A stretch of DNA of 64,000 bases from Escherichia coli (GCF_009931435.1 NZ_CP043414.1), one strand, 5' to 3'. Shown: positions 4,007 through 63,338, counted from the first letter of the stretch. Numbers and translations are program-made. Notes: generated by a model from the letters alone, not told the origin.

Positions 4007-4216
4007 AAGCGCATCCTCTAAGTGTCAATACATCAATGCAGCGTCATGCCGCGTAATAGATTTATGCTAACCAGTCATTGCCGTTTACGCCACGTTACGG
4101 ACACTTTTTTACTTTTACTGCGAGGGTGATCGACCGGCTGGGATTAGATAAGGAAACAGGCTACACTTCGCCTTTGAAAAATCATCATCACGATAAACAT
4201 AGAGGCGAAGTCCAAC

Positions 4217-5884
4217 GTGGCTCAATTCGTTTATACCATGCATCGTGTCGGCAAAGTTGTTCCGCCGAAACGTCATATTTTGAAAAACATCTCTCTGAGT
4301 TTCTTCCCTGGGGCAAAAATTGGTGTCCTGGGTCTGAACGGCGCGGGTAAGTCTACCCTGCTGCGCATTATGGCGGGCATTGATAAAGACATCGAAGGTG
4401 AAGCGCGTCCGCAACCGGATATCAAGATTGGTTACCTGCCGCAGGAACCTCAGCTGAACCCGGAACACACCGTGCGTGAGTCCATTGAAGAAGCGGTTTC
4501 TGAAGTGGTTAACGCTCTGAAACGTCTGGATGAAGTGTATGCGCTGTACGCCGATCCGGATGCCGATTTTGACAAGCTGGCCGCTGAACAAGGCCGTCTG
4601 GAAGAGATCATTCAGGCTCATGACGGTCATAACCTGAACGTTCAGCTGGAGCGTGCGGCGGATGCGCTGCGTCTGCCGGACTGGGACGCGAAAATCGCTA
4701 ACCTTTCCGGTGGTGAGCGTCGTCGCGTGGCGTTGTGCCGCCTGCTGTTGGAAAAACCAGACATGCTGCTGCTCGACGAACCGACCAACCACCTGGATGC
4801 CGAATCCGTAGCGTGGCTGGAACGCTTCCTGCACGACTTCGAGGGCACCGTGGTTGCGATTACCCACGACCGTTACTTCCTCGATAACGTTGCAGGCTGG
4901 ATCCTCGAACTTGACCGCGGTGAAGGTATTCCGTGGGAAGGTAACTACTCCTCCTGGCTGGAGCAGAAAGATCAGCGTCTGGCGCAGGAAGCTTCACAAG
5001 AAGCAGCGCGTCGTAAGTCGATCGAGAAAGAGCTGGAGTGGGTACGTCAGGGAACTAAAGGCCGTCAGTCGAAAGGTAAAGCACGTCTGGCGCGCTTTGA
5101 AGAGCTGAACAGCACCGAATATCAGAAACGTAACGAAACCAACGAACTGTTTATTCCACCTGGACCGCGTCTGGGCGATAAAGTGCTGGAAGTCAGCAAC
5201 CTGCGTAAATCTTACGGCGATCGTCTGCTGATTGATGATCTGAGCTTCTCGATCCCGAAAGGGGCGATCGTCGGGATCATCGGTCCGAACGGCGCGGGTA
5301 AATCAACCCTGTTCCGTATGATCTCTGGTCAGGAACAGCCAGACAGCGGCACCATCACTTTAGGTGAAACGGTGAAACTGGCATCTGTCGATCAGTTCCG
5401 TGACTCAATGGATAACAGCAAAACCGTTTGGGAAGAAGTTTCCGGCGGGCTGGATATCATGAAGATCGGTAACACCGAGATGCCAAGCCGCGCCTACGTT
5501 GGCCGCTTTAACTTTAAAGGGGTTGATCAGGGTAAACGCGTTGGCGAACTCTCCGGTGGTGAGCGTGGTCGTCTGCATCTGGCGAAGCTGCTGCAGGTTG
5601 GCGGCAACATGCTGCTGCTCGACGAACCGACCAACGACCTGGATATCGAAACCCTGCGTGCGCTGGAAAACGCCCTGCTGGAGTTCCCGGGCTGCGCGAT
5701 GGTTATCTCGCACGACCGTTGGTTCCTCGACCGTATCGCCACACACATTCTGGATTACCAGGATGAAGGTAAAGTTGAGTTCTTTGAAGGTAACTTTACC
5801 GAGTACGAAGAGTACAAGAAACGCACGCTGGGCGCAGACGCGCTGGAGCCGAAGCGTATCAAGTACAAGCGTATTGCGAAGTAA
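4217..5884 (+). CDS. ettA: ABC-F translation factor EttA (YjjK)
   Basis: 555 aa with two ABC cassettes (GLNGAGKST..LSGGERRR..LLLDEPTNHLD and GPNGAGKST..LSGGERGR..LLLDEPTNDLD). Confidence 0.95.
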   Translation: MAQFVYTMHRVGKVVPPKRHILKNISLSFFPGAKIGVLGLNGAGKSTLLRIMAGIDKDIEGEARPQPDIKIGYLPQEPQLNPEHTVRESIEEAVSEVVNALKRLDEVYALYADPDADFDKLAAEQGRLEEIIQAHDGHNLNVQLERAADALRLPDWDAKIANLSGGERRRVALCRLLLEKPDMLLLDEPTNHLDAESVAWLERFLHDFEGTVVAITHDRYFLDNVAGWILELDRGEGIPWEGNYSSWLEQKDQRLAQEASQEAARRKSIEKELEWVRQGTKGRQSKGKARLARFEELNSTEYQKRNETNELFIPPGPRLGDKVLEVSNLRKSYGDRLLIDDLSFSIPKGAIVGIIGPNGAGKSTLFRMISGQEQPDSGTITLGETVKLASVDQFRDSMDNSKTVWEEVSGGLDIMKIGNTEMPSRAYVGRFNFKGVDQGKRVGELSGGERGRLHLAKLLQVGGNMLLLDEPTNDLDIETLRALENALLEFPGCAMVISHDRWFLDRIATHILDYQDEGKVEFFEGNFTEYEEYKKRTLGADALEPKRIKYKRIAK

Positions 5885-24686: not shown

Positions 24687-25364
24687 TCAGTGTTTACACA
24701 GGAGCTGCTCCAGTTCGTGCAACGAAGAAACGGTCCAGGTAGGCGCGATGCCTTCTGGTTGCTCGCGATTGTGCGCATTCAGCCAGCAGGTCGCAAGCCC
24801 GGCGTTGATGCCACCGAGAATATCGGACTCGGCAGTGTCGCCAACCATCAGCACGCGTGAACGGTCAGGATTGCCCGCCTGTTCCAGCGCATAATCGAAA
24901 ATTTTCTTATTCGGTTTGGCTACGCCAACTTCTTCGGAAATCACCAACAAATCGAAATAATCACGCAGGCCCGTGCGTTCCAGACGCACTTGCTGCAAGG
25001 CGCTAAAGCCGTTGGTGATGATGCCGATTTTGGCGTTGCCGCGAATGGCATTAAGCAGGGAAACCGCGCCCGGCAGCGGCGTGCAAATTTCCGCCATCGC
25101 ATTAATGAAGGCCTCGTTGAGTTTACCTGGCTCGACGTTCAGCCGTTCGGCCCAGCTCTCAAAACGCCCGTGCTGAAGCTGTAATGAAGTGATCGCGCCG
25201 TTTTGATAATCCACCCACAGTGGCTTGTTAACGGCCTGATAGTCCTGAAAATCTTCAGCGGTAAAGGTGACGCTGTAATCAAGAAACATCCGCTGCAGGC
25301 CGGTGAATGAGTCAAAGGTAAACAGCGTTTCATCGGCATCAAAGAAAATCCAGTCCCACTTCAT
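24687..25364 (-). CDS. yjjG: Pyrimidine 5'-nucleotidase YjjG (HAD family)
   Basis: 225-aa [20 protein letters not shown]... with HAD motif I (DxDET). Confidence 0.9.
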
Positions 25365-46954: not shown

Positions 46955-48175
46955 ATGAAATACCACTCAGAACCTCTGGTTCCCCATAAATCGGCCCTGA
47001 TGCAAATGCCCGCAAATCTCCTTGCCGAAGATGTCTGTTTACCTGCCGCGATCATTAAAAAGCAGGCCCTGGAGAACAACATTACGTGGATGCAGCGTTA
47101 TGCTGACGCGCGCGGCGTTTCGCTGGCACCGCACGGTAAAACCACCATGACGCCGTGGATTTTTCAGGCGCAGCAGGCAGCTGGTGCCTGGGCAATAGGT
47201 GTCGGTAGCGCATGGCAGGCTGGTGCGGCAATGGCGAGCGGTATTCAGCGAGTGCTGATGGTTAACCAGCTGGTCGGCAAGGCGAATATGCAGTTGATTG
47301 CCCAGTTGCAACGACATTACCCGACGGTCGATTTTATCTGCTGTATCGACAGCATTGAGAACGCCCGCGCTTTGTCTGCCTTTTTTGCCAGTCAGCAACA
47401 GACACTGAACGTGATGATTGAGTTGGGTGTCCCCGGCGGACGCTGTGGCTGCCGCTCAACGGATGCCGCACTGGCACTGGCTAAACAGGCGGCCCAATTA
47501 CCAGGGCTACGTCTGCGCGGGCTTGAGTTATATGAAGGTGTTTTACACGGTGACGATCCACAACCGCAGGTAGAAGCACTGCTGCGGGATGCCGCACAAC
47601 TGGCCTGTGATATGGCAAGTCTGGTTGATGGCGAATTTATTCTCACCGGAGCAGGCACGGTCTGGTATGACGTGGTGTGCAATATCTGGCTGGCGGCAGA
47701 AAAGCCTGATAACTGCCGCATTGTTATTCGCCCTGGCTGCTACATCACTCACGACACCGGGATCTACGACGCGGCACAACAACAGTTGCTTGCCCGCGAT
47801 CCTGTGGCCTGCGATCTGGCAGGCGATCTCACATCTGCGCTGGAACTGGTCGCCATGGTGCAATCGGTGCCGGAAGCTGATCGTGCGGTGGTAAATTTTG
47901 GTAAGCGTGATTGCGCCTTCGACGCCGGACTGCCGCAACCAGTCGCCCACTACCGCAACGGCAAATCACTGGCATTTGATCCACAGGCGATTCGCAGTAC
48001 AGGCATTATGGATCAGCACTGCATGTTGCAACTGTCAGCTAATAGCGACGTGCAAGTGGGGGATATTCTGGTGTTTGGCACATCGCATCCGTGCCTGACC
48101 TTCGACAAATGGAAAGCGTTGTTATTGACTGATGACGACTACAACGTACTGGCGGAATTAGACACTCTCTTCTAA
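46955..48175 (+). CDS. PLP-dependent alanine-racemase-fold enzyme (D-serine deaminase-like / D-threonine aldolase family)
   Basis: 406 aa; candidate PLP-lysine motif LAPHGKT near the N-terminus; divergent from the deacylase operon. Confidence 0.6.
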   Translation: MKYHSEPLVPHKSALMQMPANLLAEDVCLPAAIIKKQALENNITWMQRYADARGVSLAPHGKTTMTPWIFQAQQAAGAWAIGVGSAWQAGAAMASGIQRVLMVNQLVGKANMQLIAQLQRHYPTVDFICCIDSIENARALSAFFASQQQTLNVMIELGVPGGRCGCRSTDAALALAKQAAQLPGLRLRGLELYEGVLHGDDPQPQVEALLRDAAQLACDMASLVDGEFILTGAGTVWYDVVCNIWLAAEKPDNCRIVIRPGCYITHDTGIYDAAQQQLLARDPVACDLAGDLTSALELVAMVQSVPEADRAVVNFGKRDCAFDAGLPQPVAHYRNGKSLAFDPQAIRSTGIMDQHCMLQLSANSDVQVGDILVFGTSHPCLTFDKWKALLLTDDDYNVLAELDTLF

Positions 48176-50856: not shown

Positions 50857-51813
50857 ATGAACCCGATTGCAGTTACCCTACTCACCGGTTTTTTAGGCGC
50901 AGGCAAAACCACCCTGCTGCGCCATATTCTTAATGAACAGCACGGCTACAAGATTGCCGTGATTGAAAACGAATTCGGCGAAGTCTCCGTTGATGATCAA
51001 CTGATTGGCGACCGCGCCACGCAGATCAAAACGCTGACCAACGGCTGCATCTGTTGTTCGCGCTCCAACGAGCTGGAGGACGCGCTACTCGACCTGCTGG
51101 ATAATCTCGACAAGGGCAATATTCAGTTCGATCGTCTGGTCATTGAATGCACCGGCATGGCCGATCCCGGCCCGATTATTCAGACCTTTTTCTCCCATGA
51201 GATTTTATGCCAGCGTTACCTGCTGGACGGCGTGATTGCGCTGGTGGATGCGGTACATGCCGATGAGCAGATGAACCAGTTCACCATCGCCCAGTCACAG
51301 GTTGGCTACGCCGACCGCATTCTGCTGACCAAAACCGACGTCGCAGGCGAAGCAGAAAAACTGCGTGAACGCCTGGCACGCATCAACGCCCGCGCACCGG
51401 TCTACACCGTCACCCACGGCGACATCGATCTGGGCCTGCTGTTCAACACCAACGGTTTTATGCTGGAAGAAAACGTCGTCAGCACCAAACCGCGTTTCCA
51501 CTTTATCGCGGATAAACAAAACGATATTTCGTCGATTGTGGTAGAACTGGATTACCCGGTAGATATCAGCGAAGTTTCCCGCGTGATGGAAAACCTGCTG
51601 CTGGAGTCGGCGGATAAACTGCTGCGTTACAAAGGGATGCTATGGATTGACGGCGAACCAAATCGCCTGCTGTTCCAGGGCGTCCAGCGCCTCTACAGCG
51701 CCGACTGGGACCGCCCGTGGGGCGATGAAAAACCGCATAGCACGATGGTGTTTATCGGGATTCAGCTGCCGGAGGAAGAGATTCGGGCTGCGTTTGCGGG
51801 GTTGAGGAAGTAA
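50857..51813 (+). CDS. yjiA: COG0523/CobW-family metal-binding GTPase YjiA
   Basis: Start placed at MNPIAVTLLTGFLGAGKTTLLRHIL... (318 aa); GCICCS metal-binding motif. Confidence 0.9.
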   Translation: MNPIAVTLLTGFLGAGKTTLLRHILNEQHGYKIAVIENEFGEVSVDDQLIGDRATQIKTLTNGCICCSRSNELEDALLDLLDNLDKGNIQFDRLVIECTGMADPGPIIQTFFSHEILCQRYLLDGVIALVDAVHADEQMNQFTIAQSQVGYADRILLTKTDVAGEAEKLRERLARINARAPVYTVTHGDIDLGLLFNTNGFMLEENVVSTKPRFHFIADKQNDISSIVVELDYPVDISEVSRVMENLLLESADKLLRYKGMLWIDGEPNRLLFQGVQRLYSADWDRPWGDEKPHSTMVFIGIQLPEEEIRAAFAGLRK

Positions 51814-51824
51814 AATTTCACATT

Positions 51825-51867
51825 TTTCTTAAGCCGGAAGATATATATACCCCACCGGCTTAAGAAA
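51825..51867. repeat. Inverted repeat at the convergent yjiA / accessory-operon junction
   Basis: TTTCTTAAGCCGG ... CCGGCTTAAGAAA (about 13-bp arms, 17-nt AT-rich spacer); no flanking U-tract on either strand. Confidence 0.4.
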
Positions 51868-51878
51868 GTGCAATTCTC

Positions 51879-52628
51879 TTATGAAACATCACGAAATACA
51901 CAGGTAAGTTCTTTAGGACTTGCTTTCCATATATGGTCAAAGCCACTCGACAGCATGACTTCTATTTTTCCTTCCGGACTTTCAATTAGTAAATAGCGAT
52001 CATGGCAGTTTGTATATTTGGGATTTGTAGTGATTTGCACACTCCATTCAGGATGGATACAATGAACAAAATTACTATTTATTTTACTTCCGTTTTGGAC
52101 TGCAGCGACACCTACTGCGATTTCTGAAAATTCAATAACAAGCTCTTTTCTAGGTAGTACGGAATGAAATAAGCTGCATGTATTCTCCCAATTCTGTGCA
52201 AAGTAATTATCGCATATAATTACTTTTTTTGCATTGCAACATAGCATTTCCAGATACTTTTTTAAATATATTCTATTATCTGTAGGGCTTAATGTAACGG
52301 TAACTTGATTATTAACCATACCTTTTTTATAATGTACAAAGGGAAGTGATAAATTATCATTCTCAGTAAGGATTATTTTCAACAACGATTTAGATGCTAA
52401 AGTAACAAGATCATCATCACTTTCAGGCTGACTTGCTAACATAGATAAATATTGTCGATATTCTAACTCCGGCATCTTCAATCCTAAATTTCTTGCCTCA
52501 ATCCATTGCCTTTTGTTAGTTAAATAAGGTAGTACTAGTTTTTTATGTAATCTCTTCACCTTATTCTTATCATCCATATTTTCATATGCAACTAATAAAG
52601 ATGTATCAAGAACCATTTGATAAGACAT
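51879..52628 (-). CDS. Hypothetical protein, no recognisable domain; third gene of the accessory operon (gene C)
   Basis: 249-aa ORF; ATG 4 nt after the ATPase stop with a GAGGT Shine-Dalgarno; AT-rich coding sequence. Confidence 0.6.
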   Translation of the reverse strand: MSYQMVLDTSLLVAYENMDDKNKVKRLHKKLVLPYLTNKRQWIEARNLGLKMPELEYRQYLSMLASQPESDDDLVTLASKSLLKIILTENDNLSLPFVHYKKGMVNNQVTVTLSPTDNRIYLKKYLEMLCCNAKKVIICDNYFAQNWENTCSLFHSVLPRKELVIEFSEIAVGVAAVQNGSKINSNFVHCIHPEWSVQITTNPKYTNCHDRYLLIESPEGKIEVMLSSGFDHIWKASPKELTCVFRDVS

Positions 52629-52632
52629 TTCT

Positions 52633-53682
52633 TTACCTCATCTTCATCAAATCATCTAAGGTTGCATCAAAAAAACCTAAAGGGAATCCCGTAACATTCT
52701 CTTGCAGATCGGTAAATTTCCCACCTTCATTAACTCTCATCGAGATAAAATCTTTATCCACATCAGGTTTATAATGTACAGAAATATCCTCAGAAGTTAT
52801 AACATCTTCATAAACCAAATACGCAAGTTTATTGATTAAATGTTCACAATGCGTTTCTACAATAATCTGGATACCCTTACTTGCTACAAATGCTAAAAAA
52901 ATTGCCAAATGAGACTGCGCTTTCGGATGCAATTGAATTTCGGGATTTTCTAGCAAAATAAGATCGCCTTTTTTTGCCATCAAACAAATAATCAAAACCT
53001 TTGCAATATAACTCATCCCAGCCCCAAGATTAAGAGGAGAAACATTTCCTTCAAGCTCTTTTAAGGTAAAAGCGACCTTAATCTGGTCACCAACTTTTTC
53101 AGTAACTAATTCAGACGTCGTTCCTGTAATCAGTTTCAACCAATAAGATAATTGATATGCAAGTGTTGTAGATTCGTGAACTTTCACCAGATATTCAGGT
53201 ACTGGCAAATGTTTCATTTTATCAAATGTTGAAAACAAGAATTCTCCTGCAACACCTACTCGACGTTCTGCGGTGGGCACAAATTCTTGTGCCCCCAAGC
53301 GGTTGGCATTCAGATAGAGCAACTCAGGTTCACTACCAGGCACTCTTGGCTCGTATTGATATCCCAGACGACTATCAATTTCGATATTTTCTGAGTTGAG
53401 CGTTAACGAATGAGAATTTTTTTCTGTATCCTGGACTGTTATAACAATAGATTTTGCGTTATTTTTTTTATTTCTAATAACAGGAAAATCAGCTAGAAAT
53501 CGGATAACTTCTTCCATACTATACTGATTAACAGAAGCGCTATTTTTAATTAGTAACATCAATGCCTGAATAACGCTGGATTTACCAGAAGAGTTAGTTC
53601 CAGTTAAAATGGTCAGTGGTGATAACACCAGACTTGTTGAGCCTAAACTTTTAAATCCTTGAATGTTAATATTTGTAAGCAT
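52633..53682 (-). CDS. ABC-type/AAA_21-like ATPase, second gene of the accessory operon (gene B)
   Basis: 349 aa; N-terminal MLTNINIQGFKSLGS... with Walker A GTNSSGKSS; C-terminal Walker B and H-loop (DLILLENPEIQLHP...IIVETHCEHL); start overlaps the upstream gene by 17 nt. Confidence 0.75.
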   Translation of the reverse strand: MLTNINIQGFKSLGSTSLVLSPLTILTGTNSSGKSSVIQALMLLIKNSASVNQYSMEEVIRFLADFPVIRNKKNNAKSIVITVQDTEKNSHSLTLNSENIEIDSRLGYQYEPRVPGSEPELLYLNANRLGAQEFVPTAERRVGVAGEFLFSTFDKMKHLPVPEYLVKVHESTTLAYQLSYWLKLITGTTSELVTEKVGDQIKVAFTLKELEGNVSPLNLGAGMSYIAKVLIICLMAKKGDLILLENPEIQLHPKAQSHLAIFLAFVASKGIQIIVETHCEHLINKLAYLVYEDVITSEDISVHYKPDVDKDFISMRVNEGGKFTDLQENVTGFPLGFFDATLDDLMKMR

Positions 53683-54796
53683 TTTTAATCCTTTCCATTA
53701 TTTCCTTCGCAAAATCAAAACGCATATTTACATATTGTGTTGTATCAATTGCACCAGAAAAAATACCAATCTCATCAAAATTATACTTGTATTGTTCAAT
53801 AAGCTGTTTTAATTCAATATTTTTTGATAAAAATTCAAAACTTATCTGACTGAATACCATAACTAACACTTCGAATAATCCCATATTCACTGGTCGCCTT
53901 TTAGCACCTGATTTTGTTGAAAATCTAAATGCTTCTGAACCCAACGCTTTATAGACATTAGTCATACCAGTTATACAAGCATCTTCAACTTCTTCCAGTA
54001 ACTCATCATCAGCTTTTGTATTAATGAATTTCATCGCAGATGCTAAAAAAGCATCAATATCAGACCTAAATTCAACACCTGGCATTTGATTTGTTACAAG
54101 CAAATAAAATCCTACGAACCGCAAAACCAGATATCTGTCTCGCATACGCTCAGATTTTACGCCATTACCTGTTGCAAGCCTGAAAGACTCGTGTTCAGCG
54201 AGATCCTTAATTAACTTTGTGGCCTTGCCTTGATAAAGAGCATGCCGCATTTCCTGTTTATTTAGATTAATACCACTTCGATTTACACGCTCAAAAATAT
54301 TAAATTTCACATATTCAGGTGTTGGGGGTTGAATCACATAAGAATGTAACTGGCAATCTTCAAGCTTTGCTTGTAATAATGGAGGAATATCAGAAAATTT
54401 TTTTCCTCTCAAGTCAGGCAACATAGATAAATCAGTTAAAGAAAATTCATTGTTAACATAGCGTTTCAATGCAGATATTCGTTGTTTGCCATCAATGATT
54501 TGCCTGACACCATTTTCATCCTCAAAAAGATAAATTAATGGAATAGGAATCCCCATTAAAATAGATTCAATTAATTCTGACTGGTGTTTTCTATCCCAGA
54601 CAAGTTTACGCTGAAAATCTGGAGCAAGAACCAGTTGCCCACGAGCTTCGCGACGGAGTAATTCGAAAACACTGGATTGCTCTTTTGCAATTCGAACCTC
54701 AGTATCTGTCCCCATTTGATGCGGATGAGATGTTAACTCAAGCTCTTCTTGATCTTCGAGTTCAATGCTGTCGTTTTCTACATCCGCATTACTCAT
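53666..54796 (-). CDS. DUF262 (ParB/sulfiredoxin-like NTPase, GmrS-type) domain protein, first gene of the accessory operon (gene A)
   Basis: 376 aa; acidic N-terminal tail then DUF262 motifs PDFQRKLVWDRKHQSELIESILMGIPIPLIYLF...IIDGKQRISAL and FNIFERVNRSGINLNKQEM; no DUF1524/HNH motif found. Confidence 0.75.
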   Translation of the reverse strand: MSNADVENDSIELEDQEELELTSHPHQMGTDTEVRIAKEQSSVFELLRREARGQLVLAPDFQRKLVWDRKHQSELIESILMGIPIPLIYLFEDENGVRQIIDGKQRISALKRYVNNEFSLTDLSMLPDLRGKKFSDIPPLLQAKLEDCQLHSYVIQPPTPEYVKFNIFERVNRSGINLNKQEMRHALYQGKATKLIKDLAEHESFRLATGNGVKSERMRDRYLVLRFVGFYLLVTNQMPGVEFRSDIDAFLASAMKFINTKADDELLEEVEDACITGMTNVYKALGSEAFRFSTKSGAKRRPVNMGLFEVLVMVFSQISFEFLSKNIELKQLIEQYKYNFDEIGIFSGAIDTTQYVNMRFDFAKEIMERIKNAYKY

Positions 54797-55036
54797 GGTA
54801 AAATTACCTTTAAAAATTTATCGAATTATTTATTCATAAAAATAGGGCGCTGAATCAAAATTTCAGCCCCTTAATCAACATGAATTATACCCTAACTTCC
54901 TTCTTGACTGCGACCTTCACTGCACCATTATGCGAGTTATCTCCAGAACATAATGCTCTCATACCGCCCTAAGTCATAGCCAGGCTATTGATTTTATGTA
55001 CAATCAGAATCGTCCTGATAAAAGCGAGAATACCCC

Positions 55037-57469
55037 ATGGCGGAACTGAACCTAAGTAACCTGACGGAAGCAGACATCATTACCAAATGCGTTATGCCAG
55101 CCATTCTCAATGCAGGCTGGGACAACACAACGCAAATCAGACAGGAGGTCAAACTCCGGGACGGTAAAGTCATCGTACGTGGTAAAGTTGCGGCACGCAG
55201 AACGGTAAAATCTGCTGACATCGTGCTGTATCACAAACCAGGCATTCCCTTAGCCGTGATTGAAGCAAAAGCCAACAAACATGAAATTGGCAAAGGGATG
55301 CAACAGGGCATTGAATATGCGCGCCTGCTGGACGTTCCTTTTGTTTTTGCCACCAACGGGGATGGCTTTATCTTCCGCGATGCCACCGCAGCCGAAGGTG
55401 AATGCCTTGAAAAGCAAATAACGCTGGATGACTTCCCCTCCCCCGCTGAACTCTGGCAAAAATTCTGCCTCTGGAAAGGATACACACAAGCTCAGCTTCC
55501 GGTGATTACTCAGGACTATTACGACGATGGCAGCGGTAAATCGCCACGTTATTACCAGCTTCAGGCAATCAACAAAACCATTGAAGCCGTCTCCAACGGG
55601 CAAAACCGCGTTCTGTTGGTCATGGCGACCGGAACAGGGAAAACCTATACCGCATTCCAGATCATCTGGCGCCTGTGGAAATCAAAAAATAAAAAACGCA
55701 TTCTGTTCCTTGCCGATCGCAACATTCTGGTCGACCAAACCAAAAATAATGATTTCCAGCCATTTGGTACGGCAATGACCAAAGTCAGCGGACGCACCAT
55801 TGATCCCGCTTATGAAATTCACCTCGCGCTCTATCAGGCTATAACTGGCCCGGAGGAAGACCAAAAAGCGTTTAAACAAGTCGCACCAGATTTCTTCGAT
55901 CTGATAGTCATCGACGAATGCCATCGCGGCAGCGCATCCGAAGACAGCGCCTGGCGAGAGATCCTTGATTATTTCAGTTCCGCCACCCAAATTGGCTTAA
56001 CCGCCACGCCAAAAGAGACGCATGAAGTCTCCAGCACGGATTACTTCGGCGATCCGGTTTACGTCTACTCGCTAAAAGAAGGGATCGAAGACGGCTTCCT
56101 CGCCCCTTATAAAGTTGTCCGTGTTGATATTGATGTTGATCTGCAAGGCTGGCGCCCAACCAAAGGGCAAACTGACTTAAACGGCGAAGTGATCGACGAT
56201 CGTATCTATAACCAGAAAGATTTCGATCGCACGATGGTAATCGACGAACGCACAGAACTGGTTGCCAGAACCATTACCGACTACCTCAAGCGCACCAATC
56301 CGATGGATAAAACCATCGTCTTCTGTAACGACATCGATCATGCAGAACGTATGCGCCGCGCCCTGGTTAATCTCAACTCGGAGCAGGTGAAAAAGAACGA
56401 CAAATACGTCATGAAAATCACCGGCGATGATGAAATTGGCAAAGCTCAGTTGGATAACTTCATCAACCCGAAAAAACCGTACCCGGTTATCGCGACCACT
56501 TCAGAGCTGATGACCACCGGTGTGGATGCTAAAACCTGCAAACTGGTAGTACTGGACCAGAACATCCAGTCGATGACCAAATTCAAGCAGATTATCGGTC
56601 GTGGTACACGCATCGACGAACGTTACGGCAAACTCTGGTTTACCATCCTCGACTTTAAAAAAGCCACCGAACTGTTTGCCGATGAGCGTTTCGATGGCAT
56701 TCCCGAAAAAGTCATGGATACCACACCAGAGGATATCACCGATCCAGAATCTGATTTTGAAGAGAAACTCGAAGAAATCAGCGAACATGACGACGAACAG
56801 GTAACGGGCGTTGATGAACCGCCTGCGCCACCATACCAGGTTACCGATACCGATGATGTCGGCCCACTTCCGGAAGAAGACGAGAAGAAAATCCGCAAGT
56901 TTCACGTCAACGGTGTCGCGGTGGGCGTTATTGCGCAGCGTGTTCAGTATTACGATGCCGACGGTAAACTGGTTACCGAATCTTTTAAAGATTACACCCG
57001 CAAAACACTGCTCAAAGAATATGCCTCGCTGGATGACTTTACCCGCAAGTGGCAGGACGCCGATCGCAAAGAAGCGATCATTCACGAGCTGGAGCAACAG
57101 GGGATCATCTGGGAAGTACTGGCAGAAGAAGTCGGTAAAGATCTCGACCCGTTCGACATGCTTTGCCACGTAGTGTATGGTCAGCCGCCGTTAACCCGCA
57201 AAGAGCGCGCCGAGAACGTGCGCAAGCGGAACTACTTCACAAAATACTCTGAAGCAGCGCAAGCCGTGCTCGATAATCTGCTGGATAAATACGCCGATGC
57301 GGGCGTACAGGAGATCGAAAGTATTCAGGTGCTGAAACTTAAACCATTCGACAGCATGGGCACTTTACCGGAGATTATTAAAACCGGATTTGGCGACCGT
57401 AACGGGTATAATCAGGCGCTCAGCGAGCTGGAAAACGAAATCTACCAATTACCGCCCCGCTCTGCTTAA
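55037..57469 (+). CDS. hsdR: Type I restriction enzyme R subunit HsdR (short, Type IB-like form)
   Basis: 810 aa; N-terminal PD-(D/E)xK nuclease region and SF2 helicase motifs [26 protein letters not shown]. Confidence 0.9.
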
Positions 57470-57483
57470 CAACTCTCTTTTGC

Positions 57484-57522
57484 GCCTTCTGCAACCATCA
57501 TGTTGCAGAAGGCCTTGTTTTT
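57484..57522 (+). terminator. Rho-independent terminator between hsdR and hsdM
   Basis: Perfect 12-bp stem GCCTTCTGCAAC / GTTGCAGAAGGC with a 6-nt loop, followed by CTTGTTTTTC. Confidence 0.55.
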
Positions 57523-57535
57523 CATGGAATACAAC

Positions 57536-59005
57536 ATGTCTATCAGCTCAGTAATCAAATCATTACAAGATATTATGCGCAAAGATGCCGGTGTGGATGG
57601 CGATGCGCAGCGTCTCGGTCAGCTCTCCTGGCTGCTGTTTTTGAAAATCTTCGATGCCCAGGAAGAGGCGCTGGAACTGGAGCAGGATAACTATCAATAT
57701 CCGATCCCACAGCGTTATTTGTGGCGCAGTTGGGCCGCCAACGCGCAGGGCATTACCGGTGATTCCCTGCTGGAATTCGTTAATGATGATCTGTTCCCGG
57801 CGTTGAAAAACCTCACTGCGCCTATCGATAAAAACCCACGCGGCTACGTGGTGAAGCAGGCGTTCAGCGATGCCTATAACTATATGAAAAACGGTACGCT
57901 ACTGCGTCAGGTGATCAACAAGCTGAACGAAATTGACTTTACCAGCGCCAGCGAACGCCATCTGTTTGGTGATATTTACGAACAGATCCTTAAAGATCTG
58001 CAATCTGCGGGCAATGCTGGCGAATTCTATACTCCACGCGCCGTCACTCGCTTTATGGTGGATCGCGTTGATCCGAAACTCGGCGAATCCATTATGGACC
58101 CGGCCTGCGGTACGGGCGGTTTTCTTGCCTGCGCATTTGATCATGTAAAGAACAAATACGTGAAGAGCGTCGCCGATCATCAGACTCTGCAACAACAGAT
58201 CCACGGTGTCGAGAAAAAACAGCTTCCGCACCTGCTGGCGACCACCAATATGCTGCTGCACGGCATTGAAGTACCGGTACAAATTCGTCACGACAACACC
58301 CTGAATAAACCGCTTTCCTCCTGGGATGAGCAACTGGATGTGATTGTTACCAACCCGCCATTTGGTGGCACGGAAGAAGACGGTATTGAGAAGAACTTTC
58401 CGGCAGAGATGCAAACCCGCGAAACGGCGGATCTGTTCCTGCAACTGATTGTGGAAGTACTGGCGAAAAACGGTCGCGCGGCGGTGGTATTGCCGGATGG
58501 CACACTATTTGGCGAAGGCGTTAAAACCAAAATCAAAAAACTGCTTACCGAAGAGTGCAACCTGCATACCATCGTGCGTTTACCGAATGGGGTGTTTAAC
58601 CCCTATACCGGCATTAAAACCAACCTGTTGTTCTTTACCAAAGGTCAGCCAACCAAAGAGATTTGGTTCTATGAGCATCCGTATCCGGCGGGCGTGAAAA
58701 ATTACAGTAAAACCAAGCCGATGAAGTTTGAAGAGTTTCAGGCGGAGATCGACTGGTGGGGGAACGAGGCCGATGGTTTTGCCAGCCGCGTCGAGAATGA
58801 GCAGGCGTGGAAAGTCAGCATTGATGACGTGATTGCGCGTAACTTCAATCTGGATATTAAAAACCCACATCAGGCGGAAACCGTTAGCCATGATCCGGAC
58901 GAGCTGTTAGCGCAGTATGCAAAGCAGCAGGCGGAGATCCAGACGCTGCGTAATCAACTGCGCGATATTCTTGGCGCTGCGCTGTCTGGCAAGGAGGTTA
59001 ACTGA
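57536..59005 (+). CDS. hsdM: Type I restriction-modification N6-adenine DNA methyltransferase HsdM
   Basis: SAM motif DPACGTGGFL and catalytic NPPFGG; start placed at MSISSVIKSLQDI... after the hairpin (the track ORF starts at 57500, inside the hairpin). Confidence 0.9.
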   Translation: MSISSVIKSLQDIMRKDAGVDGDAQRLGQLSWLLFLKIFDAQEEALELEQDNYQYPIPQRYLWRSWAANAQGITGDSLLEFVNDDLFPALKNLTAPIDKNPRGYVVKQAFSDAYNYMKNGTLLRQVINKLNEIDFTSASERHLFGDIYEQILKDLQSAGNAGEFYTPRAVTRFMVDRVDPKLGESIMDPACGTGGFLACAFDHVKNKYVKSVADHQTLQQQIHGVEKKQLPHLLATTNMLLHGIEVPVQIRHDNTLNKPLSSWDEQLDVIVTNPPFGGTEEDGIEKNFPAEMQTRETADLFLQLIVEVLAKNGRAAVVLPDGTLFGEGVKTKIKKLLTEECNLHTIVRLPNGVFNPYTGIKTNLLFFTKGQPTKEIWFYEHPYPAGVKNYSKTKPMKFEEFQAEIDWWGNEADGFASRVENEQAWKVSIDDVIARNFNLDIKNPHQAETVSHDPDELLAQYAKQQAEIQTLRNQLRDILGAALSGKEVN

Positions 59006-60753
59006 TGAGTGTGGAAAAGCTGATCGTTGATCATATGGAAACCTGGACCTCGGCGTTGCAAACCCGTTCCACCGCCGGGCGCGGCAGTTCCGGAAAAATT
59101 GATTTATATGGCATTAAGAAATTACGTGAGCTGATTCTGGAACTGGCTGTGCGCGGTAAACTGGTGCCGCAGGATCCGAATGATGAACCGGCGTCGGAGC
59201 TGCTGAAGCGTAATGAAGAACGGAAAAAAGAATTAGCGCGCAATAATGGTATGAAAACCACAGCAAGCACTAATATCCATGGAAATGAATATTATATCGA
59301 TACCCCCGAAAAGTGGTCATGGATAAGACTTGGTAATTTAGCTAAATTCATCGATTACCGAGGGAAAACACCACATAAAAAAGAAAATGGTATAAGGCTT
59401 ATAACAGCAAAAAATATCAGAAAGGGCTGTATTGATCTCAATCCAGAAGAATTCATATCTGAAGAAGATTACATATCATGGATGACAAGAGGCTTTCCTA
59501 AATGTGGTGATATTTTATTCACAACTGAAGCACCACTGGGGAATGCAGCGATTATTGATTTAGACGGAAAGTTCGCTCTTGCTCAACGTTCTATCTGTTT
59601 TCAATGGCATACTCCAGAGATAAGCCCTTTTATGCTTATTCAAATCCTGGCGATCCCCTTCCAGTCACAACTAAGTGACAAATCTACAGGCATGACCGCA
59701 ACAGGAATAAAAGCGTCTAAGTTAAAAGAGATCCCTGTTATTTTACCACCTTACCAAGAACAAATACGTATTGTATCCAAAGTACAGGAGTTCATGTCCC
59801 TATGTGACCAACTGGAACAGCAATCCCTGACCACTCTGGACGCACATCAGCAACTGGTTGAAACCCTGTTGGGAACGCTTACAGACAGCCAAAACGCCGA
59901 GGAACTGGCTGAAAACTGGGCGCGTATTAGCGAGCATTTCGACACCCTATTTACCACCGAAGCCAGCGTGGATGCGTTAAAACAGACCATTCTGCAACTG
60001 GCCGTAATGGGCAAACTTGTGCCGCATGATCCGAATGACGAACCAGCCTCTGAACTGCTCAAACGAATTGCGCAGGAAAAAGCTCAACTGGTGAAAGAAG
60101 GAAAAATAAAAAAACAAAAACCGTTGCCGCCGATTAGCGATGAGGAAAAACCTTTTGAACTGCCGGAAGGGTGGGAATGGATTAGACTAGGAAATATTGG
60201 TGAAGTTAAAGGGGGCGGAACCCCAAGTAAAAACAATCCTGATTTTTGGAAAGGTAATATTCCATGGGTTTCACCAAAGGATATGAAGGTTAATTACATC
60301 TCCAAAAGTCAACTAAATATTTCAAAAGAGGCTGTATTGGAGAGTTCAGTACATCTAATTCCTGAAAATAGTCTTATTTTTGTTGTCCGAGGCATGATTT
60401 TAGCCCATACATTCCCCGTAGCAATAACAAAAAAAGAAGTCACTATTAATCAAGATATGAAAGCCATATCAACTAATCAATTAAATACTGATTTTTTAAT
60501 TTACTTACTTAAAGCAAACGAGACTCGAGTAATATGCTTAGTTGACCGCTCCTCTCATGGCACATGTAAACTTGTTTCAGATAAACTTTTCAATTTGGTT
60601 TTACCGTTGCCTCCATTAGAAGAACAATTTCGTATTACAGAACGAATAAATATGCTATTAGCTTATTGTGATAGATTGAAAAATTATATAAATCTAAAAA
60701 AACAAACCCAACTGCACCTTGCAGATGCACTCACTGACGCGGCGATAAACTAA
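59005..60753 (+). CDS. hsdS: Type I restriction-modification specificity subunit HsdS
   Basis: 582 aa; ATG overlaps the hsdM stop (TGATG); two target-recognition domains, each preceded by a conserved repeat (LAVRGKLVPQDPNDEPASELLKR / LAVMGKLVPHDPNDEPASELLKR). Confidence 0.9.
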   Translation: MSVEKLIVDHMETWTSALQTRSTAGRGSSGKIDLYGIKKLRELILELAVRGKLVPQDPNDEPASELLKRNEERKKELARNNGMKTTASTNIHGNEYYIDTPEKWSWIRLGNLAKFIDYRGKTPHKKENGIRLITAKNIRKGCIDLNPEEFISEEDYISWMTRGFPKCGDILFTTEAPLGNAAIIDLDGKFALAQRSICFQWHTPEISPFMLIQILAIPFQSQLSDKSTGMTATGIKASKLKEIPVILPPYQEQIRIVSKVQEFMSLCDQLEQQSLTTLDAHQQLVETLLGTLTDSQNAEELAENWARISEHFDTLFTTEASVDALKQTILQLAVMGKLVPHDPNDEPASELLKRIAQEKAQLVKEGKIKKQKPLPPISDEEKPFELPEGWEWIRLGNIGEVKGGGTPSKNNPDFWKGNIPWVSPKDMKVNYISKSQLNISKEAVLESSVHLIPENSLIFVVRGMILAHTFPVAITKKEVTINQDMKAISTNQLNTDFLIYLLKANETRVICLVDRSSHGTCKLVSDKLFNLVLPLPPLEEQFRITERINMLLAYCDRLKNYINLKKQTQLHLADALTDAAIN

Positions 60754-60775
60754 TTTTCTCGCCCTCATAAAACCA

Positions 60776-60801
60776 ATAAAGCGGCTAAATAGCCGCTTTA
60801 T
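60776..60801. terminator. Hairpin downstream of hsdS
   Basis: ATAAAGCGGCT-AAAT-AGCCGCTTTAT palindrome 23 nt after the hsdS stop; no strong U-tract. Confidence 0.35.
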
Positions 60802-60880
60802 TCACATCACCAAAAATTATATTTTACGCTAATTTTCATCTTATTTTCATTAATTTTTAGCTGGACTTTCCCCATATTTA

Positions 60881-60896
60881 CTGATGATATGTCCAG
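60881..60896. promoter_or_regulatory. LexA (SOS) box in the symE promoter
   Basis: CTGATGATATGTCCAG, a CTG-N10-CAG box (with flanks TACTG...CAGGT) about 80 bp upstream of the symE ATG. Confidence 0.5.
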
Positions 60897-60914
60897 GTAT
60901 TTAGCGCGGTGCGA

Positions 60915-61000
60915 ATGTGCGCCAACACACCCGCACCGCTCATCACAATCCCTATTTCACGAGAATAGTAATCATGACTGACACGCATTCTATTGCACAA
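60915..61000 (-). ncRNA. symR: Expected position of the SymR antisense sRNA (boundaries not determinable from sequence)
   Basis: Placed only by analogy: in K-12 SymR is encoded antisense to the symE 5' UTR and start codon; no independent sequence evidence. Confidence 0.25.
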
Positions 61001-61315
61001 CCGTTCGAAGCAGAAGTCTCCCCGGCAAATAACCGTCAATTAACCGTGAGTTATGCGAGCCGCTACCCGGATTACAGCCGTATTCCCGCCATCACTCTGA
61101 AAGGTCAGTGGCTGGAAACCGCCGGTTTTACCACCGGCACGGCGGTAGATGTCAAAGTGATGGAAGGCTGTATTGTCCTCACCGCCCAACCACCCGCCGC
61201 CGAGGAGAGCGAACTGATGCAGTCACTGCGCCAGGTGTGCAAACTGTCAGCGCGTAAACAGAAGCAGGTGCAGGAGTTTATTGGGGTGATTGCCGGTAAA
61301 CAGAAAGTCGCCTGA
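60974..61315 (+). CDS. symE: SOS-induced toxin-like protein SymE (AbrB/SpoVT fold)
   Basis: 113 aa [48 protein letters not shown]...; track ORF starts at an upstream Met (60917). Confidence 0.85.
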
Positions 61316-61322
61316 TACATTG

Positions 61323-61354
61323 ACCCGGTAGCGCCAGTGCTACCGGGTATTATT
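61323..61354 (+). terminator. Terminator hairpin between symE and the convergent GmrSD-like gene
   Basis: ACCCGGTAGC-GCCAGT-GCTACCGGGT hairpin followed by ATTATT. Confidence 0.5.
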
Positions 61355-61361
61355 CGCCACG

Positions 61362-63110
61362 TTATACCAACGCGCTCTCCATCTGTTTTTCAAATGCCTG
61401 ACGGATTAATCCCATAATGTAAGGAAGTTGTGCGAGGTCGCTGAAACCAATTTCTACATCGCCATTGCCCCAGCGCCCAACATTTGTCACATCTTTGGCA
61501 ATACCTTTCGGATCGACCAGTTCATGAAACTGCATATTAAGCGACAATCGCAGTCGGCTTTTTTGCGGCACAACATCAACAAAATTCGTTTCCGCTTTAA
61601 ACGCAATATAGAGCTTCAATACTTCCTGCGTGATCCCTGCGTCCAGGCGCAAAACTTCATCGCTAAGATGATCGAATAACACCCGGCTATGCGAACCATC
61701 AGCAAGAAAAGGATAATCACTCAGGCTGTAACTGGTTTTGTTTTCCGGCTGCCCCCGATAAACAGCTAAAACCTCTTCAGGAAGAGAAGGCGCTTGCCAG
61801 ACCTGAACCGCGAGATCGGCCAGACGATCGGCTCGGGCGTGAATGGCAGCTTCATCCCATTTTTCGCACTGTCCAAGACCGATATTCAAATAAAGCGGGC
61901 TATGCTTAAAGCCGTCTTCAATATCGCGTTTTTCCGCGAAAGGTCTGTCACTGTAGCGGGAGTTATAGCGCGTTAAAGTGAGATTCCCCAACGTATGCAA
62001 CAATTCTTTATGAATACGCTGCCAGTCGCTTCCCAGCTCTTCGCGCCATTTAGCCGACAAATTTTCGTTCTGCGGCATAATGTGCTCAATCGTAAACTCT
62101 TCCACGCGCTCTCTGCGTTTATTGTTTTCCAGTCGTCGTAACCAGTAACTGCGACTGCGGAAGTTATAGAGATCGCGAACTTTTAATTCCCGTTTAAATT
62201 CATCATCGTTGGGGAAACGACGATATGAAGGTAGATTCAGAAAATGTACCTGAATACTTTCCAGATAATTTTCTTTATTAATAACTTTATAAAAAGTGGC
62301 AAACGTCTTGTTAAGAGAATTTGTTGGAATCGCACATACTGCACGGCGGAAAACATAAGATTCAATTAAACGAATTATGCTCAGGAAATCTTCACGAGAC
62401 AAAACGCCATTTTTATAGTCATGATAAAGCGCCAGTAAGAAAGGATACGCCACATCGACTTTTAACTCGCGCAAATCCTGAAAAGCCGTAGCAAGCGATT
62501 TGTCACTTTCTTTTCCCAATGCCATTGCACAGTAATACTCCGCGTAGATGTGAATATCTTCAACCAGCCGATCTACGCCTTTTTCAGCAACACTCTGGCT
62601 ACGGGCATGGAGTTTAAAAGCCTCATAGACTTCATCTGTCCGAGGGATCTCCCCCGTTTTTACCGTCAGATAATGACGCATAAAACTGTCAAAATATTCG
62701 CTGTAACCTTGCTGACCAAAGGCGACTTCCATGGGTCGCCAGTGATCTTCATACAACCGGGTTTGATGCTCTGGTTCGAGACCCATCAGAATAAAATTGC
62801 GCACCAGATCGGCCTGACTTAACGCCTTACCGGTGGAGTTCATACTTTCAAAAATCAGTTGCGGATTATCCTGACCACGATTAAGCGCCACATCGACAAT
62901 TAATAACTTTGCTAACCCACGACATAAGGGGATCAAGTCATCACCGAGTTTGGCAATTTGTTCATCAAAGAAAGTAAAGTTTTCCATTATTCGATGGGAA
63001 TAGTTTTCTGGCATTGGTCTTTGTTTTATTAACGCCAGCAAACTGTCTTTATCAGTCTCGGTAAGCAGTAATTTAAATCCTTTCTCGCCGGACTCATAAG
63101 GATTGAGCAA
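61362..63110 (-). CDS. GmrSD-family (DUF262 C-terminal part + DUF1524 His-Me finger) protein lacking the N-terminal DGQQR core; possibly the yjiT-equivalent locus
   Basis: 582-aa ORF with a TTG start right after an in-frame stop; DUF262 distal motif IFESMNSTGKALSQADLVRNFILMG; DUF1524 motif EHIMPQNENLSAKW...LHTLGNLTLTRYNSRYSD; only 64 bp separate it from yjiS. Confidence 0.7.
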   Translation of the reverse strand: MLNPYESGEKGFKLLLTETDKDSLLALIKQRPMPENYSHRIMENFTFFDEQIAKLGDDLIPLCRGLAKLLIVDVALNRGQDNPQLIFESMNSTGKALSQADLVRNFILMGLEPEHQTRLYEDHWRPMEVAFGQQGYSEYFDSFMRHYLTVKTGEIPRTDEVYEAFKLHARSQSVAEKGVDRLVEDIHIYAEYYCAMALGKESDKSLATAFQDLRELKVDVAYPFLLALYHDYKNGVLSREDFLSIIRLIESYVFRRAVCAIPTNSLNKTFATFYKVINKENYLESIQVHFLNLPSYRRFPNDDEFKRELKVRDLYNFRSRSYWLRRLENNKRRERVEEFTIEHIMPQNENLSAKWREELGSDWQRIHKELLHTLGNLTLTRYNSRYSDRPFAEKRDIEDGFKHSPLYLNIGLGQCEKWDEAAIHARADRLADLAVQVWQAPSLPEEVLAVYRGQPENKTSYSLSDYPFLADGSHSRVLFDHLSDEVLRLDAGITQEVLKLYIAFKAETNFVDVVPQKSRLRLSLNMQFHELVDPKGIAKDVTNVGRWGNGDVEIGFSDLAQLPYIMGLIRQAFEKQMESALV

Positions 63111-63173
63111 ATAATAACCACTTCCTTGTGAAGGTTATAGAGAAATCCGGTTTATCTGCGATGAATTGCCCCC

Positions 63174-63338
63174 TCACTCCACATCCTCCCTGCGTAACCC
63201 AATATCCCTCAACCGTTCATCACTCATCTGCTGTAACACGCGTCGGGTCTGCATTTGCCGCCGCCAACGCCTCACCGCCTGCCAGAGTTGCACCAGGCCG
63301 ATAAACGGCGCTTTAGCTCTGTTTTCGTGAAATTCCAT
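63174..63338 (-). CDS. yjiS: DUF1127 small protein YjiS
   Basis: 54-aa ORF MEFHENRAKAPFIGLVQLWQAVRRWRRQMQTRRVLQQMSDERLRDIGLRREDVE; below the 60-aa cut-off of the ORF track. Confidence 0.75.
   Translation of the reverse strand: MEFHENRAKAPFIGLVQLWQAVRRWRRQMQTRRVLQQMSDERLRDIGLRREDVE

Follow-up and report, generated by a model that had tools for sequence, protein, structure and literature searches.

A predicted Menshen system, an EcoAI-family restriction system and a truncated GmrSD-type gene in one haplotype of the Escherichia coli immigration control region

What occupies the places that mrr and mcrBC hold in strain K-12 is the question raised by a 64,000-nt stretch of Escherichia coli DNA (NZ_CP043414.1), referred to here as the window. 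The interval concerned, positions 51,879–63,338, represents one haplotype of the E. coli immigration control region (ICR), hotspot #36, which is bounded by yjiA and yjiO and carries defence genes in 89% of genomes (Hochhauser et al. 2023); the right-hand bound of the ICR is given as yjiO or yjiN (Hochhauser et al. 2023; EcoSal Plus 2025, PMC12707154). Slot 1 denotes the segment from yjiA to hsdR and slot 2 the segment from symE to yjiS. Open reading frames (ORFs) were listed and translated over 46.9–64 kb of the window. With high confidence, the haplotype is explained as a complete Menshen system, an intact EcoAI-family restriction-modification (R-M) system with its own HsdS specificity, symE/symR, and a GmrSD-type candidate inactivated by a 378-bp 5' deletion, with the cargo exchanged in the ICR. 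The identity and intactness of the genes, their motifs, the limits of the cassette, the deletion and the distribution across the population are direct readings; the molecular roles we infer.

The features of slot 1 and its left anchor are as follows.

yjiA, 50857–51813, plus strand: GTPase gene, left anchor of the ICR; protein 99.4% identical to K-12 YjiA
Low-GC Menshen cassette, 51814–54962: 3,149 bp, about 32–37% GC
Inverted repeat, 51825–51867: between the convergent yjiA and nsnC; 13-bp arms TTTCTTAAGCCGG / CCGGCTTAAGAAA
nsnC, 51879–52628, minus strand: predicted Menshen effector, 249 aa; inactive PIN-like N-terminal part and PLD-superfamily C-terminal part (PB-PLD1)
nsnB, 52633–53682, minus strand: predicted Menshen ABC-type ATPase, 349 aa
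nsnA, 53666–54796, minus strand: predicted Menshen DUF262 (ParB-like NTPase) protein, 376 aa

The three nsn genes are co-oriented neighbours; nsnA and nsnB overlap by 17 bp, nsnB and nsnC are separated by 4 bp, and the operon (51879–54796) has a GC content of about 33%. Each product matches its PADLOC Menshen profile over essentially the whole protein and the whole profile, with E values of 2e-110 for NsnA (residues 8–371 against profile positions 21–383 of 385), 1.5e-78 for NsnB and 2.2e-71 for NsnC. NsnA carries Pfam PF03235 (DUF262) in the annotation precomputed for this protein, and its motifs QRKLVW at residue 62, DGKQR at 102 and FERVN at 168 follow the QRxxxW, DGxQR, FxxxN pattern. The C-terminal helical domain of NsnA lies within the PADLOC profile coverage; the protein has no NCBIfam match, and a sequence search against solved structures returned none. 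NsnB matches the Pfam families AAA_15 and AAA_21 and has a Walker A motif (GTNSSGKS at 28), a Menshen-type Walker B motif (LILLEN at 241) and GAG at 220 instead of SGG; EN-type Walker B motifs and GxG variants have been described for NsnB (PMC12065111). Because NsnC has neither a Pfam nor an NCBIfam match, its class was assigned with the help of structure prediction, in which the best structural neighbours, together with the HDR motif, agree with the description of the PB-PLD1 class (PMC12065111). H209-D210-R211 and D140 are invariant, and the PIN-like half is devoid of any invariant acidic residue. By these profile matches and the predicted fold, the slot-1 operon is a complete Menshen system, with an NsnC assigned to the inactive PIN plus PLD (PB-PLD1) class. 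The inverted repeat between yjiA and nsnC, read straight from the sequence and not reported by the consensus terminator scan, is probably a two-way terminator that forms part of the inserted cassette.

After the published bioinformatic model of Menshen, NsnA, as a ParB-like NTPase, would sense invading nucleic acid. NsnB, the ABC ATPase, would transduce the signal from NsnA, and NsnC may degrade nucleic acid through its PLD-type phosphodiesterase domain, the inactive PIN domain possibly serving target binding. That the Menshen DUF262 protein senses modified DNA is a published hypothesis; the Menshen of Solibacillus silvestris protects E. coli against T2, T4 and T6 (PMC12065111).

The boundaries of the cassette are sharp. 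In the GC profile the Menshen block (51814–54962) has 32–37% GC versus 49–57% around it, and homology to other EcoAI-type loci resumes at 54963. Megablast and sensitive blastn searches of 5,426 complete RefSeq E. coli genomes gave no nucleotide match to the cassette; 563 complete genomes match only the 74–78 bp upstream of the EcoAI-type hsdR. The cassette is present in the complete GenBank genomes CP027520.1 and OZ038830.1, neither of which belongs to the RefSeq collection. An identical NsnA protein occurs in 575 blocks of the assembly collection, and the identical protein and layout recur in many draft assemblies. Eight Menshen-bearing loci were fetched (L005–L012); in every one Menshen occupies the position between yjiA and an EcoAI-type hsdR, and across Menshen and hsdRM these loci are 98.6–99.4% identical to the window. 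The Menshen-hsdRM block has three alternative left-hand neighbourhoods, namely hpa genes, a D-amino-acid deaminase cluster or tsr. In the locus from CP027520.1 (L012, 9115–10131), nsnB is called as a 338-aa protein and its coordinates are shifted by one base from those in the other loci, which is either a frameshift or a sequencing error.

A phage or plasmid origin of the cassette was considered and set aside, since the collection searched held no phage match and the plasmid matches were distant or weak: relatives of ~67% DNA identity on Klebsiella plasmids of 200–310 kb (H116–H119) and partial ones on Campylobacter plasmids. In Klebsiella variicola (L017–L019, 6833–9750) a Menshen of the same type, with ~80% protein identity, stands alone just downstream of smpB, the usual site of tmRNA-associated islands, with no R-M genes nearby. 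Salmonella enterica (L014–L016) carries at the same site as E. coli the series yjiA, nsnCBA, EcoAI-type hsdRMS, symE (106 aa) and a 617-aa GmrSD-type gene. DNA identity between E. coli and Salmonella is 74–79% for the nsn genes, 84–87% for hsdR and hsdM, and 86–88% for yjiA and btsT, and the nsn divergence equals that from the Klebsiella copy at its unrelated site. Simple vertical inheritance of the E. coli and Salmonella Menshen is doubtful, as the nsn genes diverge more than the flanking core genes. The nsn and hsd identities differ, and therefore so do the histories of the two systems; on these comparisons Menshen is an autonomous module with a history distinct from that of its hsd neighbour. 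The site shared by E. coli and Salmonella would reflect either an old polymorphism or block transfer.

The region between the two slots contains the type I system and symE/symR.

hsdR, 55037–57469, plus strand: EcoAI/FtnUII family (type IB), 810 aa, intact
hsdM, 57536–59005, plus strand: 489 aa as called in related records
hsdS, 59005–60753, plus strand: 582 aa; target-recognition domains at ~59235–59792 and ~60180–60700
symR antisense RNA, 60903–60979, minus strand: Rfam RF01809, 88.9 bits against a gathering score of 61
symE, 60974–61315, plus strand: 113 aa; NCBIfam NF010128, 228 bits against a cut-off of 132; 94.7% identical to K-12 SymE

HsdR scores 1193.8 bits against NCBIfam NF046051 (EcoAI/FtnUII), whose cut-off is 550, and is ~27% identical to HsdR of EcoKI. 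HsdR, HsdM and HsdS match the PADLOC profiles REase_I, MTase_I (E 3e-243) and Specificity_I (E 9.6e-219), respectively, all at full length. An upstream ATG at 57500 would extend HsdM to 501 aa; among the eight fetched loci, the longer form is called in L007 and L010 and the 489-aa form in the others. The three hsd genes have intact frames, lie next to each other and share one orientation. On this evidence hsdRMS is an intact EcoAI-family (type IB) system for which restriction is predicted, and it would restrict unmethylated DNA in the usual way. Types IA, IB and ID are allelic at this locus, a textbook point restated in EcoSal Plus 2025 (PMC12707154). Compared with the eight other Menshen-bearing loci, HsdS matches in its conserved blocks and differs from every one of them in both variable blocks. 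The first recognition block matches that of E. coli GPT24-02 (L001), an unrelated EcoAI-type strain, and the second does not; the blocks look like domain shuffling of specificity within one ICR haplotype. The identical HsdS protein is found on 18 public contigs. The 5' end of symE, which starts at 60974, is overlapped by the antisense symR; with both the ORF and the overlapping antisense RNA present, symE/symR is by sequence a SymE/SymR type I toxin-antitoxin pair.

Slot 2 and its right-hand flank contain three features.

5'-truncated GmrSD-type gene, 61362–63110, minus strand: 582-codon ORF opening at TTG
Junction of the 378-bp deletion, 63113–63114
yjiS (DUF1127), 63174–63338, minus strand: 54 aa, right of slot 2; 98% identical to K-12 YjiS

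The slot-2 protein matches the Pfam GmrSD_N model over positions 102–198 of 199 only, GmrSD_C over 2–137 of 138 (E 4.8e-26), and DUF5655, and its PADLOC match begins at profile position 104 of 543. It retains the second half of DUF262, the middle region, the complete DUF1524 nuclease domain with the motif EHIMP at residue 342 ((D/E/H)HxxP type), and DUF5655; a motif search found no remaining DGxQR. The intact allele of E. coli 2017-02-2CC (L003), used as the reference, is an uninterrupted frame of 697 codons with VIDGQQRLTT near its start. Aligned with this allele, the window has a clean gap of 378 bp (alignment columns 289–666), which has cost the gene its ATG, the initial 115 codons and a leader segment of 33 bp. 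The ends of the deletion share the short repeat TATT(T)GC; in the intact gene, the TTG at which the 582-codon ORF begins encodes an internal leucine. Independent samples supply 7–9 contigs that encode the exact 582-aa product, in every case within this Menshen-hsd context, and the deletion junction recurs unchanged in independent assemblies. The 90%-identity cluster of this protein has 3,852 members, mostly of 697 aa, and the symE-GmrSD-yjiS arrangement is present in 1,286 of the 5,426 complete genomes; among the top-ranked matches listed in complete RefSeq genomes, the deletion junction was absent as a single piece.

The activity of GmrSD, BrxU and SspE requires the DUF262 nucleotide-binding domain. 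Since the start codon, the leader and the DGQQR motif are gone and this NTP-binding domain is required, the slot-2 copy is most likely inactive, by analogy with those enzymes, and probably without any function. In kind the gene is a type IV candidate, and modified-DNA cleavage is a prediction for its 697-aa subfamily; the closest solved structure, 9jfl_B, matches with an E value of 5e-13 only. In the reference genome (L003, 11063–13156, minus strand), as in L001 and L004, RefSeq splits the gene into a 387-aa 'GmrSD domain-containing protein' and a 'DUF262 pseudogene, missing C-terminus', although L003 11063–13156 is actually one uninterrupted 697-codon ORF with all three Pfam domains. This split looks like an annotation artefact that could make surveys count intact genes as broken.

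The DUF262 genes of the two slots were also considered as local duplicates, which was ruled out by pairwise comparison: NsnA and the slot-2 protein have no significant similarity (BLASTP E = 0.08). Being not detectably similar, they are therefore independent imports from one superfamily rather than a local lineage.

The record of K-12 has the order yjiS-yjiT-yjiV'-mcrC-mcrB-symE/symR-hsdS-hsdM-hsdR-mrr-yjiA. Nucleotide homology of the window to K-12 is limited to btsT-yjiA, ending at 51813, to symE at 60853–61311, and to yjiS and yjiR from 63169. No match to K-12 Mrr, McrB, McrC, YjiT or YjiV was found by tblastn in the whole 64-kb window, nor was there any in a 99.99%-identical contig (L020, GCA_002965045.1) that runs through yjiR, rpn, mdtM and yjiN and extends past yjiN, the far anchor of the locus. 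A preliminary description of this DNA had stated that the scaffold genes yjiA, symE and yjiS are kept, that the hsd allele differs from that of K-12, and that mrr and mcrBC are missing. All of this holds: the scaffold proteins are 99.4%, 94.7% and 98% identical to those of K-12, respectively, the hsd genes belong to the EcoAI/FtnUII family, and neither mrr nor mcrBC lies in the window or elsewhere in the locus as far as the near-identical contig extends. The K-12 order that it gave was right for the scaffold and omitted yjiV, which sits beside yjiT between mcrC and yjiS and is absent here too.

In all haplotypes compared, divergence begins directly behind the yjiA stop codon, and no integrase, insertion sequence element or flanking repeat is present at the interval. 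Alternative cargo between the anchors yjiA and yjiN/yjiO (mdtM) is seen in L001, L003, L004, L013 and K-12. The complete genome with the closest backbone, 2020CK-00188 (L013), is 99.3% identical over window positions 25001–50000 and has a cargo of mrr, hsd type IA, symE and mcrBC. That a near-identical backbone bears this K-12-type cargo directly supports an exchange of cassettes through recombination in the flanking sequence. As a mechanism, the cargo of this chromosomal defence hotspot would be exchanged by homologous recombination in its conserved flanks. The repeated replacement at this hotspot that had been suggested is borne out by the common breakpoint and by alternative cargoes on a near-identical backbone, and was already published. 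In some E. coli a GmrSD homologue stands in for McrBC, and among 8,424 enterobacterial loci type IB systems occur at 11%, GmrSD at 12%, McrBC at 6% and Mrr at 22% (PMC12707154). ICR-borne GmrSD homologues in strains without McrBC were shown in 2015 (He et al., PMC4437046).

In sister EcoAI-type haplotypes, slot 1 holds either a pair of 322-aa and 63-aa genes without a defence-family match or a full 550-aa GmrSD-like gene. The latter type is represented by L004, in which the full-length 550-aa gene (2683–4335, minus strand; PADLOC Orf5 and HEC-06 models) is in the mrr slot and the 697-aa gene in the mcrBC slot. It is the commonest EcoAI-type haplotype among complete genomes and places two different DUF262-DUF1524 genes in one ICR. 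In 2020CK-00188 (L013, 1–5378), one intact DEAD/DEAH helicase gene of 6,345 bp adjoins mcrC at the site of the K-12 pseudogene yjiV. K-12 yjiV matches this gene in two pieces with ~2.2 kb missing between them. The K-12 pseudogene is therefore what an internal deletion has left of a very large helicase. A second variable spot is found just left of the ICR, where the window (46955–48175 and upstream) has a cluster between tsr and btsT that is missing in K-12. Its genes are D-amino-acid deaminase-like, N-acyl-D-amino-acid deacylase, RidA and sodium:solute symporter genes; in other Menshen-bearing strains hpa genes or tsr adjoin btsT.

Several points weigh against the explanation preferred here. 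The C-terminal DUF3696 helix of NsnB is marginal in Pfam (E 2.2, residues 329–347). No nsnA promoter rises above chance, and the counts of the promoter and terminator scans around the operon do not exceed those of shuffled sequence. The PLD-like fold closest to NsnC is MIT_C of MITD1, for which nuclease activity is not, to our knowledge, established. The truncated GmrSD ORF keeps an open frame of 582 codons, and AAGGAAG stands 11 nt upstream of its TTG, so that some expression is possible. Finally, the sole Menshen assayed has a BECR RNase effector rather than a PLD domain, and the mechanism of Menshen is a bioinformatic model (PMC12065111).

The preliminary description had further proposed that both vacated positions hold genes of DUF262 ancestry and that functions for the restriction of modified DNA were repeatedly replaced. 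In its strongest form, this means that Mrr and McrBC have been functionally replaced by two working DUF262-based modified-DNA restriction modules, which we consider unlikely. The DUF262 ancestry itself stands, as NsnA and the slot-2 gene both carry PF03235; GmrSD-family enzymes cut DNA with glucosylated hydroxymethylcytosine (hmC) (PMC4437046), the S. silvestris Menshen protects against the hmC-containing phages T2, T4 and T6 (PMC12065111), and L004, a sister haplotype that is commoner, bears GmrSD-like genes in both slots, the one in slot 1 coding for a full 550 aa. However, the slot-1 operon is a known system, Menshen, which does not belong to the type IV enzymes, is without a DUF1524 nuclease and senses modified DNA only by hypothesis. 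The slot-2 gene has lost the first half of DUF262 and with it the start codon, the leader and the DGQQR NTPase motif. Moreover, the other slot-1 cargo is sometimes without a defence-family match, and the two DUF262 proteins are not detectably similar in pairwise comparison. Replacement as such is thus upheld, like-for-like replacement is supported only in part, and the defective GmrSD gene and the sister cargo speak against two replacements that both work as modified-DNA restriction.

It is somewhat harder still to maintain that Menshen and the EcoAI-type hsd genes are a functionally coupled pair in which, for example, NsnA would read the methylation state set by HsdM. The two are transcribed divergently from a shared 240-bp spacer, the arrangement yjiA, nsnCBA, hsdRMS, symE and GmrSD is the same in Salmonella enterica, and of all Menshen operons 27.9% have a BREX system, a type I or III R-M system or a methylase as neighbour (Li et al. 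2025, PMC12065111). Yet Menshen has a GC content of ~33% and hsdR and hsdM of ~50%, the stretch upstream of this EcoAI-type hsdR occurs in 563 complete genomes that lack Menshen, a Menshen of this type stands in Klebsiella with no hsd genes around it, and the E. coli-Salmonella identities of the nsn genes and of hsdR/hsdM show that their histories differ. Just as doubtful is the wider proposal that Menshen and type IB hsd form an old E. coli/Salmonella haplotype kept by cooperation, the loss of GmrSD reflecting redundancy with Menshen against hmC phages. Were it true, Menshen might target phages or DNA able to evade or subvert the type I system, and NsnA might read an HsdM-related DNA state.

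Slightly less credible again is that the truncated GmrSD-type ORF is expressed through yjiS read-through from the TTG or an internal ATG, yielding a nuclease freed of NTPase control or a new DUF1524-DUF5655 protein. Its 582-codon frame is uninterrupted and both DUF1524 (EHIMP) and DUF5655 are complete, the allele persists in several independent samples, and in many genomes RefSeq lists a 387-aa C-terminal product as a protein of its own. The deletion has, however, taken the native leader and start codon, and in GmrSD, BrxU and SspE activity depends on the DUF262 NTP-binding domain; 7–9 contigs against a 3,852-member cluster dominated by 697-aa forms fit a recent, clonal and neutral loss. That the arrangement is an assembly or chimera artefact, as the abrupt GC jump and the absence of the cassette from all complete RefSeq E. 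coli genomes might suggest, is refuted to a practical certainty by its recurrence in independent assemblies: the locus is real, its 12.6-kb sequence recurring at 100% identity in L021, an independent sequencing run, and at 99.99% in GCA_002965045.1, and the exact NsnA occurring in 575 blocks and at the same site in every locus read.

The haplotype is accordingly read as a predicted Menshen system beside an intact type IB system and a defective GmrSD-type gene. All of its parts belong to known families at a known hotspot, and the understanding of the locus and of the systems is unchanged. Three details are new: the ICR cargo includes a Menshen of the PLD-effector class, which is rare in E. coli and has a counterpart in Salmonella; a 378-bp deletion specific to the lineage most likely inactivates the neighbouring GmrSD-type gene; and the HsdS combination is private. 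The text of the hotspot and Menshen papers that was searched makes no explicit mention of Menshen as ICR cargo, and Menshen is not in the table of major ICR systems (PMC12707154). Menshen of the PLD-effector class adds a further cargo type to the best-studied restriction hotspot of E. coli, and slot 2 provides a natural example of a GmrSD-type defence gene lost by a small deletion with its neighbours intact. From its gene content, the lineage is expected to have EcoAI-type type I restriction and probably Menshen activity, and to be without Mrr, McrBC or GmrSD restriction of modified DNA.

The haplotype shares with the ICR of K-12 the anchors yjiA, symE/symR and yjiS, the slot structure and the role as a restriction island. 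It differs in having type IB hsd instead of type IA (EcoKI), Menshen where K-12 has mrr, and a GmrSD-type remnant where K-12 has mcrBC, yjiV and yjiT. The slot-2 gene has the same position adjoining symE as the ICR-borne GmrSD homologues of pathogenic E. coli, such as APECO1_2080 (He et al. 2015, PMC4437046), and it shares their DUF262-DUF1524 architecture and 96–98% DNA identity with the common 697-aa allele; unlike that allele, the window copy has the 378-bp 5' deletion that removes the DGQQR half of DUF262. With the EcoAI (type IB) family the type I system has in common an HsdR above the curated equivalog cut-off, a full-length HsdM and HsdS, and an HsdS with two variable recognition domains and repeated conserved blocks, whereas the combination of both recognition domains is private to this haplotype among the loci compared. 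The Menshen operon has the same gene order, nsnA-nsnB-nsnC, as that of S. silvestris StLB046 (Millman et al. 2022, analysed in Li et al. 2025, PMC12065111). In both systems NsnA has the QRxxxW, DGxQR and FxxxN motifs but lacks an additional sensor domain at its N-terminus, NsnB is an ABC ATPase whose Walker B is of the unusual EN type and which also carries GxG, and NsnC combines an inactive PIN domain with an effector domain. The predicted effector of the E. coli NsnC is PLD-like (PB-PLD1, HDR motif), in contrast to the BECR RNase of S. silvestris, and the E. coli operon lies in the chromosomal immigration control region, whereas the S. silvestris copy is in a Bacillota genome.

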